Assembly (NCBI GenBank): GCA_045533205.1
Contig: JAZSHL010000047.1
Location: forward strand, 39,027 to 103,026
DNA length: 64,000 nucleotides
From: Acutalibacteraceae bacterium
GTDB taxonomy: Bacteria; Bacillota; Clostridia; Oscillospirales; Acutalibacteraceae
Reading direction: 5' to 3'
The notes below the pieces were generated by a model. It was given only the letters and a program-made list of their open reading frames with translations. It was not told the DNA's origin and searched no databases. Positions 541-7,684 of this stretch are shown piece by piece (the stretch's first letter is position 1; every line of letters begins with the position of its first letter). A program made the translations under genes and the position numbers.

Positions 541-624
541 ATAATATCACCCTCTTTAAGTTTTGCAACACAATTAGCATTTTGTGTTGTTTTGTCCAAG
601 TTGTGAGTCTATAGTCAAGTTTAA

Positions 625-1988: not shown

Positions 1989-2010
1989 AGGGGTAAGGAG
2001 ATTTACCCCT
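1989..2010 (-). terminator. Hairpin after the coat-like gene 2034..2255 (attenuator or terminator).
   Basis: Stem AGGGGTAA/TTACCCCT (8 bp), 6-nt loop. On the minus strand it is followed by TAATTTTAT. Confidence 0.4.
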
Positions 2011-6287: not shown

Positions 6288-6299
6288 TTTGTAGGATTT
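6288..6299. repeat. Exact 12-nt copy (TTTGTAGGATTT) of the right half of operator IR2.
   Basis: 6288-6299 is identical to 6615-6626. It lies between ORFs 6309..6548 and 5982..6263. Confidence 0.6.
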
Positions 6300-6308
6300 T
6301 TATTTATA

Positions 6309-6548
6309 TCAACCGTCGTCACGGTTAATAATCGAATCAACATAATCTGTAAGCTCTTTAGCTGATTTATCAACACGCTTCTTCAATACATAACGCTTTA
6401 TTGTTCGTGATATATCATCAACGACATTAATTAAGGAAGCAATAATAACACCACCAACGAAACCCGCAAAAACAAAAAAAGCCGCAACAAATGCAGGTAT
6501 TGAATTAAAATAAGCATTAACTGCATCTAAATCAGGTACATAATCCAT
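6309..6548 (-). CDS. Hypothetical single-TM 79-aa protein, the first gene of the minus-strand phage operon.
   Basis: ORF track, SD GAGGTGA. Hydrophobic helix IPAFVAAFFVFAGFVGGVIIASLI. Confidence 0.5.
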   Translation of the reverse strand: MDYVPDLDAVNAYFNSIPAFVAAFFVFAGFVGGVIIASLINVVDDISRTIKRYVLKKRVDKSAKELTDYVDSIINRDDG

Positions 6549-6577: not shown

Positions 6578-6652
6578 ACACTACAAAATGTAGTGTCTAT
6601 ATATTATCCTACTTTTTGTAGGATTTCAACCCCTTAAACTACATTTTGTAGT
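6578..6652. promoter_or_regulatory. Operator array of three palindromes sharing a CTAC...GTAG core.
   Basis: IR1 ACACTACA-AAA-TGTAGTGT (6578-6596). IR2 TCCTAC-TTTTT-GTAGGA (6607-6623). IR3 ACTACA-TTT-TGTAGT (6638-6652). All lie in the divergent gap between the XRE repressor and the phage operon. Confidence 0.6.
6601..6629 (-). promoter_or_regulatory. Promoter of the minus-strand phage operon: TTGAAA, 17 nt, TAATAT.
   Basis: Minus-strand TTGAAA at 6629-6624 and TAATAT at 6606-6601. The 17-nt spacer is exactly IR2. Confidence 0.5.
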
Positions 6653-6680
6653 ATTGTACAAATATAAGGGGGTGCAAACT

Positions 6681-6905
6681 ATGGATTATAGACAAAAATT
6701 TAAAAACTTAAGAATTGATAATGATTTAAAACAAGAAGACATAGCAAAAATTTGCAATGTATCAGATGCAACAGTTGGACACTGGGAAACGAAAAGAAGA
6801 GACATGAAAATTGATAGCATTATAAAACTATGTATTTTTTATAATGTGTCACCAGAATACATTTTTGGATTTACAAAAGAACAAAAACCATTACCTAAAA
6901 AATAA
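6681..6905 (+). CDS. XRE-family helix-turn-helix repressor (cI/Cro-like).
   Basis: MDYRQKFKNLRIDNDLKQEDIAKICNVSDATVGHWETKRRDMKIDSIIKLCIFYNVSPEYIFG. SD AAGGGGGTG lies 6 nt upstream of the ATG at 6681. The track start, TTG at 6654, is less likely. Confidence 0.8.
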   Translation: MDYRQKFKNLRIDNDLKQEDIAKICNVSDATVGHWETKRRDMKIDSIIKLCIFYNVSPEYIFGFTKEQKPLPKK

Positions 6906-7277: not shown

Positions 7278-7299
7278 GAGAGCCGTCACAGGCTCTCTT
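7276..7299. terminator. Bidirectional hairpin between the convergent genes 6969..7277 and 7286..7510.
   Basis: Stem AAGAGAGCC/GGCTCTCTT (9 bp), 6-nt loop, T-rich runs on both strands. Confidence 0.45.
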
Positions 7300-7510
7300 T
7301 GTTGTTATAACTTTTGTTAATGCAATAACCTAAATCACATAACACACACCTTAATAATGCAGTAACAACATATTTAGGCGGTGTACGTGATCCCGAAGAC
7401 CAAGAACACAAAGTACGGTAAGGAACATCATAATGAACGGAAAATTCAAACAAAGAATAACGAGATAAAATTATAACATCACGAATTGTAGTTTCAGTTT
7501 TATTATTCAT
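7286..7510 (-). CDS. Small helix-turn-helix protein (XRE-like).
   Basis: MNNKTETTIRDVIILSRYSLFEFSVHYDVPYRTLCSWSSGSRTPPKYVVTALL... SD AGGAGGG precedes the ATG at 7510. The track start, GTG at 7540, lies inside the repeats. Confidence 0.55.
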   Translation of the reverse strand: MNNKTETTIRDVIILSRYSLFEFSVHYDVPYRTLCSWSSGSRTPPKYVVTALLRCVLCDLGYCINKSYNNKESL

Positions 7511-7529
7511 AAACCCTCCTGCGCTTGAA

Positions 7530-7561
7530 ACAATGTGCACCTAAAGGAACACATTGTGCAC
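7530..7561. repeat. Two 11-nt direct repeats, ACAATGTGCAC and ACATTGTGCAC, spaced 21 bp apart. Each contains the palindrome GTGCAC.
   Basis: 7530-7540 and 7551-7561, identical at 10 of 11 positions, immediately upstream of the small HTH gene. Confidence 0.6.
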
Positions 7562-7619
7562 TACGTTAAATTTCGTAAACAATAAATAAAAAAATTTAAA
7601 ATGTAAAATAAAGCAGTTA

Positions 7620-7647
7620 TTTTGTATAGTTGTTTATTATGTAAATT
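7620..7647 (+). other. Weak dif-like site in which only the XerD-arm half matches.
   Basis: TTATGTAAATT (7637-7647) matches the B. subtilis dif XerD arm TTATGTAAACT at 10 of 11 positions. The left arm does not match (2 of 11). Confidence 0.15.
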
Positions 7648-7684
7648 GCATATTATCGCCTGATATATTTTTTTGAAAAGTTTT

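Follow-up and report, generated by a model that had tools for sequence, protein, structure and literature searches.

The palindrome array at 6578-6652 of the window, a stretch of 64,000 nucleotides, belongs to an 8.2-kb inovirus-like (filamentous) prophage whose host is a gut Clostridia bacterium. On its minus strand the prophage encodes a run of short membrane proteins and short one-helix coat-like proteins, as well as a Zot/pI ATPase (973-1848; PF05707, scoring 22.9 over a cut-off of 20.3) and, as its last gene, located behind a terminator-like hairpin and an origin gap, a rolling-circle replication protein (Rep; PF23343, 46.6 over a cut-off of 27.8). These gene types, together with att repeats and a length within 5-12 kb, are the features expected of inovirus-type elements, and all are present here. 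The first leftward gene (6309-6548, minus strand) specifies a 79-aa membrane protein with one hydrophobic segment and no match to an HTH family; a Cro- or MOR-type HTH gene is thus not found in this first position.

The prophage is bounded by 44-bp direct repeats lying 8227 bp apart, with a dif-like right attachment site at 7617-7660 (plus strand) and the left copy at L001:10417-10460; a xer-like tyrosine recombinase gene of the host lies nearby, with the left copy ∼500 bp downstream of it. One half of the repeat resembles the XerD arm of Firmicute dif, and the att-like site recurs near the xer-like gene across the host genus. The filamentous prophage Pf4 encodes its own integrase; within the 8227 bp considered here we found no integrase-sized ORF. 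Xer-exploiting integration at a dif-like site in a Firmicute is put forward as a candidate. The left att copy contains a perfect palindrome with 10-bp arms, and the same att-like site flanks the sibling prophages L002, L056, L156 and L157.

Opposite the leftward genes lies a gene for an XRE-family protein (6681-6905, plus strand), preceded by a Shine-Dalgarno (SD) sequence at 6666-6672. Its 74-aa product consists of an HTH domain only (Pfam HTH_3, 39.5 bits over a curated cut-off of 23), with the recognition helix SDATVGHWE; the HTH spans residues 8-61, and neither a C-terminal protease nor an oligomerisation domain was found in the protein. It matches PHROGs repressor families, and the nearest solved structure to its family profile is that of the ICEBs1 repressor ImmR (7t8i, E 6e-12). 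The closest relatives are encoded in Acutalibacteraceae and other gut Clostridia assemblies, whilst a single-protein search of viral contigs recovered none, nor did these contigs contain a match to the two-site DNA pattern described below. A second HTH protein (7286-7510, minus strand; ESM Atlas HTH_3-like clusters, 0.94) is convergent with the xre unit.

The 132-nt gap between the two divergent units holds three palindromes, at the places and with the shared core and spacing described in the sequence-only reading. IR1 (6578-6596) has 8-bp arms and a 3-nt loop, IR2 (6606-6624) has 7-bp arms around a 13-bp core at 6609-6621, and is thus one pair longer than had been given, and IR3 (6638-6652) has 6-bp arms. 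Their centres, at 6587, 6615 and 6645, are 28 and 30 bp apart, and CTAC-W5-GTAG is common to all three. Reverse-complemented, the 15-bp core of IR1 is identical to IR3; the 13-mer of IR2 departs from IR3 at a single base. None of 5000 dinucleotide shuffles of the gap contained two or more CTAC-N5-GTAG sites, as against three in the real sequence, and these three are most of the total for the 2.44-Mb genome, which has only five. When scored with a position weight matrix (PWM) built from all sites, the three putative operators (O1, O2 and O3, for IR1, IR2 and IR3, respectively) each reached 19.2, whilst the remainder of the prophage did not exceed 1.2. A regulon of the repressor in the host was considered and rejected, as just one further strong operator-like site occurs in the genome (G000:C127:24976); it is single, isolated and intergenic, and is probably a chance match.

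Two further elements of this region deserve mention. A 12-nt copy of the right half of IR2, reported previously at 6288-6299 (plus strand), does exist, in the 5′ leader of a 93-aa gene, but we judge it not to be an operator: it is only a half-site, a copy of this kind arises in 11 % of simulated prophages (P ∼0.11), and the same word occurs in a gene leader of the sibling L056, whose operators are AGAAC-N6-GTTCT. In addition, a fourth palindrome (6645-6662; 6-bp arms, 6-nt loop) extends across the right-hand half of IR3 as well as the -10 element of the xre gene, and is partly retained in homologues.

A leftward phage promoter, PL, is predicted on the minus strand at 6601-6629, with a -35 element (TTGAAA) at 6629-6624, a -10 element (TAATAT) at 6606-6601 and a start site at ∼6594. 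At 9/12 consensus positions over a 17-bp spacer this match is at chance level when taken alone (14 matches in the region, compared with 10.6 ± 3.6 in shuffles). It becomes credible because homologues keep a promoter with an operator-filled spacer at this place: 58 homologous loci have one of at least 9/12, and 24 of the 58 combine a perfect TTGACA/TATAAT with an operator in the spacer. Spacers of the promoters in homologues contain 5.03 palindromic pairs, versus 3.73 ± 0.09 in shuffles. These loci bear out the proposal that IR2 fills the spacer of the phage promoter, where its core is centred on position 9 of 17. IR1, as had also been noted, lies just downstream of the -10 element and would span positions ∼+2 to +14 counted from the predicted PL start; it is the variable member of the array, present in about half of the homologues at offsets of ∼-19 to -36 from O2 and absent from the rest.

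Rightward, we could place a promoter for the xre gene at 6629-6657 (plus strand), which the earlier reading had not located when it proposed autoregulation from IR3. It has a -10 element (TATTGT) at 6652-6657, a non-consensus -35 region at 6629-6634 that abuts the -35 element of PL (6629-6624), and a predicted start at ∼6664. In all 23 aligned homologues the pattern T-A-x-x-x-T directly follows the proximal site, whilst the -35 columns vary; this conserved -10 element places IR3 in the spacer of the weak promoter from which the repressor itself would be transcribed, and an autoregulatory role for this site is thus supported by the layout of the region. The O2-O3 distance is 29-30 bp in these 23 homologous loci and 25 bp in loci of other helix classes.

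How far a transcript from PL would reach is uncertain, because a terminator-like hairpin (1989-2010, minus strand; L001 13037-13016) follows the coat-like gene at 2034-2255 and precedes the Zot-like ATPase gene, and because Rep has a candidate promoter of its own (541-568, minus strand; TTGCAA-16-TATTAT with TG) that carries no operator. At the hairpin the PL transcript probably ends or is attenuated. As such, the suggestion that the XRE protein represses the whole operon from IR2 and IR1 is supported with respect to the operator role of these sites, whilst the word 'whole' has to be qualified. The start of Rep (508-546 of the window, minus strand) reads ATT, compared with ATG in L056, the frame being otherwise intact (82 % identity over 270 aa). 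This ATT could be a non-canonical start or a lost one, and the prophage may as a result be crippled; a four-codon upstream ORF with an SD sequence (ATG at 542) is kept in both elements.

We compared the array across 54 genomic loci found via the repressor, to which further loci of the genus and of viral contigs were added. Upstream of most of these repressor genes there is a leftward promoter with a palindrome in its spacer and a second copy 25-30 bp towards the repressor gene, and the sequence of the palindrome follows the recognition helix. With the helix SDATVGHWE, 24 of 28 loci had at least two CTAC-W5-GTAG sites, as opposed to 0 of 43 with other helices, whilst all 18 loci with a QAYG helix had AAAC-N5-GTTT instead (two loci are counted twice in these tallies). 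The four exceptions with the same helix and no operators are L007, L009, L022 and L026. Operator similarity, computed over whole spacers, correlated with helix identity (r 0.81), with a partial r of 0.69 given the rest of the protein and a reverse partial of 0.25; at 55-70 % background identity, it was 0.87 for same-helix pairs and 0.50 for different-helix pairs. As the loci are kin, these figures are descriptive and are not probabilities, and the counts do not represent independent events; the XRE tree with the helix left out (43 columns) is too poorly resolved for a count of independent switches. A scan in the opposite direction, from DNA to protein, which involves no selection by protein, gave the same picture: the O2+O3 pattern matched 34 times in the genome collection, in every case directly before an HTH gene, which was an XRE gene in 33 cases and a BlaI-like gene in one (L190). 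Seventeen of these matches belong to a second XRE clade (helix CNQT[IV]SFWE) that is only 22-30 % identical to the protein studied here. Covariation in relatives, which the sequence-only reading had proposed as a check, thus speaks for the palindromes as operators of the adjacent XRE protein, and from it we infer that this protein binds them.

The same comparisons bear on the possibility that two proteins share the array in the manner of CI and Cro, with the XRE protein at IR1 and IR3 and the second HTH protein at IR2. In its favour, the flanks of IR2 and one base of its core are unlike those of IR1 and IR3, and a second HTH protein does exist at 7286-7510. However, 12 of 23 homologues carry the exact 13-mer of IR2 where O3 would be, L017 and L019 have the same sequence at O2 and O3, and the PWM scores of the three sites are equal. 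Moreover, we found no homologue of the second HTH protein in the other operator-bearing loci, nor in the collection of genome contigs; its only relatives in the genus are two distant ones (L171 and L172), whose own promoter spacer contains a different palindrome, and it has repeats of its own at 7530-7540 and 7551-7561. We therefore regard two proteins as very improbable. As the IR2 core is used at the IR3 position in homologues that do not have the second HTH protein, one protein would suffice, and the second appears dispensable for the array. The region of the latter (7286-7561) adjoins the att site, as does XafT in Vibrio dif-integrating elements (PMC12715192); by this analogy the second HTH protein may take part in recombination or act as an accessory regulator.

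Binding by a host regulator, either LexA or a member of the BlaI/MecI/CopY family, would couple the phage to stress. Boxes of the BlaI/MecI/CopY family contain TACA/TGTA, the host encodes both LexA and BlaI, and the BlaI-like gene at L190 is one of the 34 downstream genes of the scan. LexA is, furthermore, used by CTXphi, where it controls rstR (PMC3121763). The boxes in the host lexA promoter are, however, GAAC-N4-GTTY, of which there is none in the switch gap, and the host blaI promoter carries GTCTAA/TTAGAC repeats unlike the array motif, which also departs from the TACA-N2-TGTA box in having a 3-nt spacer. Also against a host regulator, XRE proteins with other helices go with other motifs, and the motif of the array hardly occurs elsewhere in the genome; we hold this reading to be highly unlikely. 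Even less credible is that the palindromes act as hairpins (a terminator or an ssDNA signal) and not as protein sites. IR1 was flagged as terminator-like on the plus strand and the phage has an ssDNA phase, but the stems are A+T-rich and contain few G-C pairs, loci of one helix class share a sequence and spacing that differ where the helix differs, and the same layout is found at non-phage loci that have no ssDNA stage.

Very probably, then, the array is the operator set of a single XRE repressor (6681-6905), serving negative-feedback silencing and immunity in a filamentous prophage. In such a scheme, an XRE dimer would read the 13-bp site CTAC-W5-GTAG; at O2 it would exclude RNA polymerase from the spacer of PL, taken as the strong promoter of the pair, and at O1, over the predicted start site, it would strengthen the block. 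Transcription of the virion genes would thereby be kept low, and the cell would be immune to phages sharing the operator. Upon entry into a naïve cell PL would fire, probably hindering the weak xre promoter; rising levels of repressor would then clear PL, and this would probably free the xre promoter, since the two promoters are back-to-back with their -35 regions touching, such that more repressor is made. O3 would cap the amount of repressor and set its plateau. The predicted outcome is a burst on entry followed by shutdown with leaky chronic production, and a quiet prophage immune to its own class.

A variant keeps the same operators and has the XRE protein at O2 activate the xre gene directly, giving a delayed switch-on after the logic of lambda CI at OR2 or of restriction-modification C proteins. 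The xre promoter, with its conserved -10 and no consensus -35 element, and the fixed O2-O3 distance of 29-30 bp would suit this. Nevertheless, the centre of O2 lies at ∼-49 from the predicted xre start, whilst direct activators of this sort typically sit at -41/-42, other helix classes use 25 bp, and relief of polymerase interference accounts for the same geometry. Direct activation is thus possible but not probable, and, given the position of O2, any positive arm is speculative.

With repression and feedback as the favoured reading, the system would be a negative-feedback immunity switch rather than a bistable lysis/lysogeny switch. No inducing route is visible in the prophage or the gap: the repressor has no protease domain, no ImmA-type HExxH protease or antirepressor is encoded among prophage ORFs of at least 40 aa, and the gap contains no LexA box. 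The lack of a Cro, a protease domain and a LexA box makes it CTXphi-RstR-like rather than lambda-like. The general architecture of temperate-phage switches, which the sequence-only reading had recognized, is indeed present in the divergent promoters and multiple operators; the lambda-like choice between lysis and lysogeny that this implied is not supported, because there is no Cro or MOR and the phage is a non-lytic inovirus.

The closest parallel is CTXphi RstR, a repressor that has alleles with different specificities. Here, as there, a filamentous prophage sits at a dif-like site with a repressor that lacks self-cleavage encoded opposite the phage operon. The gap is similarly compact, at 132 nt compared with the 138 bp of ig-2, which contains three repressor sites and mediates autorepression (PMC4762005); three sites, one of them predicted to be autoregulatory, are likewise present in our array. 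The two differ in that the host here is of Gram-positive type, that no LexA box lies in the gap, and that Rep comes last with a candidate promoter of its own, whereas the replication gene of CTXphi is the first in the repressed operon. Perfect 13-bp palindromes in both promoter spacers are a further difference, and the likeness to RstR drawn here is one of architecture.

With lambda OR and the CI-MOR switch of TP901-1, in which CI acts at OR, OL and OD (PMC7250872), the array shares divergent promoters, three palindromic operators and the placement of operators within promoter spacers. It differs from both in having no Cro or MOR opposite, no C-terminal oligomerisation or protease domain, no lytic state and no operator between the two -35 regions. 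ImmR of ICEBs1 (7t8i) is, similarly, an XRE immunity repressor found in a Firmicute, and its target promoter is divergent too; the present protein differs in having only 74 aa and no ImmA-type HExxH partner among the prophage ORFs of at least 40 aa. Pf4r of Pseudomonas Pf4, which gives superinfection immunity (PMC8402870), and FpsR of Shewanella SW1 are also small HTH repressors of filamentous prophages; FpsR, in contrast with what we propose here, did not bind its own promoter, and its system has long overlapping leaders (PMC4762005). Finally, the Enterocloster inoviruses are 6.5-8.5-kb gut Clostridia prophages flanked by direct repeats and secreted without lysis (PMC10061712); our prophage resembles them in size, host group and repeats. 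That paper does not mention a repressor, HTH, dif or Xer, and describes no regulatory sites. Our literature search found no paper on the regulation of Gram-positive gut inoviruses, nor any occurrence of the operator words in a relevant context. Thus, whilst the switch mechanism itself is textbook, the regulation of this phage group appears undescribed, and exact, testable operators and promoters can now be given for a Gram-positive gut inovirus.

The part most worth following up is a cassette with swappable specificity. Thirteen loci with a Zot-like gene (some recognized by a local profile only, with Pfam support for several) fall into seven helix/operator classes. L056 is a close sibling of our prophage (Zot 71 %, Rep 84 %, 68-74 % DNA identity, the same att-like site), and its operators are AGAAC-N6-GTTCT; its repressor gene lies off the contig, and L156 and L166 pair these operators with the helix QTYYSRYE. 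Conversely, L002 has a repressor that is 90 % identical and switch DNA that is 83 % identical, together with a Zot that is only 22 % identical. These comparisons indicate that the switch cassette is portable and is swapped between sibling prophages for others of different DNA specificity. It is predicted from this that prophages with the same helix and operator exclude each other. Moreover, these small repressor/operator pairs, which occur naturally on a single promoter scaffold, could provide orthogonal switches for Clostridia genetics, and might also be used to study helix-to-DNA recognition. In a wider view, which we consider unlikely as it stands, the repressor and its two promoters make up a portable unit of gut Clostridia whose recognition code can be rewritten. 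Filamentous prophages would exchange this unit and thereby form immunity groups, and same-helix copies on the chromosome, among them the operator-less L007 and L009 located right after mutS2, might repress filamentous phages as they enter or allow prophages to act in trans on host genes for surface proteins.

The same scaffold is also found before non-phage genes, which specify DUF6809, BspA-type LRR and zinc-ribbon proteins, a glyoxalase and other HTH proteins. At L174-L204 (Scatosoma, Christensenella and relatives), second-clade XRE genes have the same operator pair and promoter scaffold before membrane or secreted proteins, and the sites before the BlaI/MecI-like gene at L190 read TACA-N3-TGTA, with one base more than the N2 spacing common in such boxes. 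Operator-less repressor copies are located at L007:2609, L009:6421, L054:2623 (truncated), L022:8001 and L026:7860; three of them, those of L007, L009 and L054, directly follow a mutS2-like gene, and such copies may be insertion remnants or domesticated repressors.
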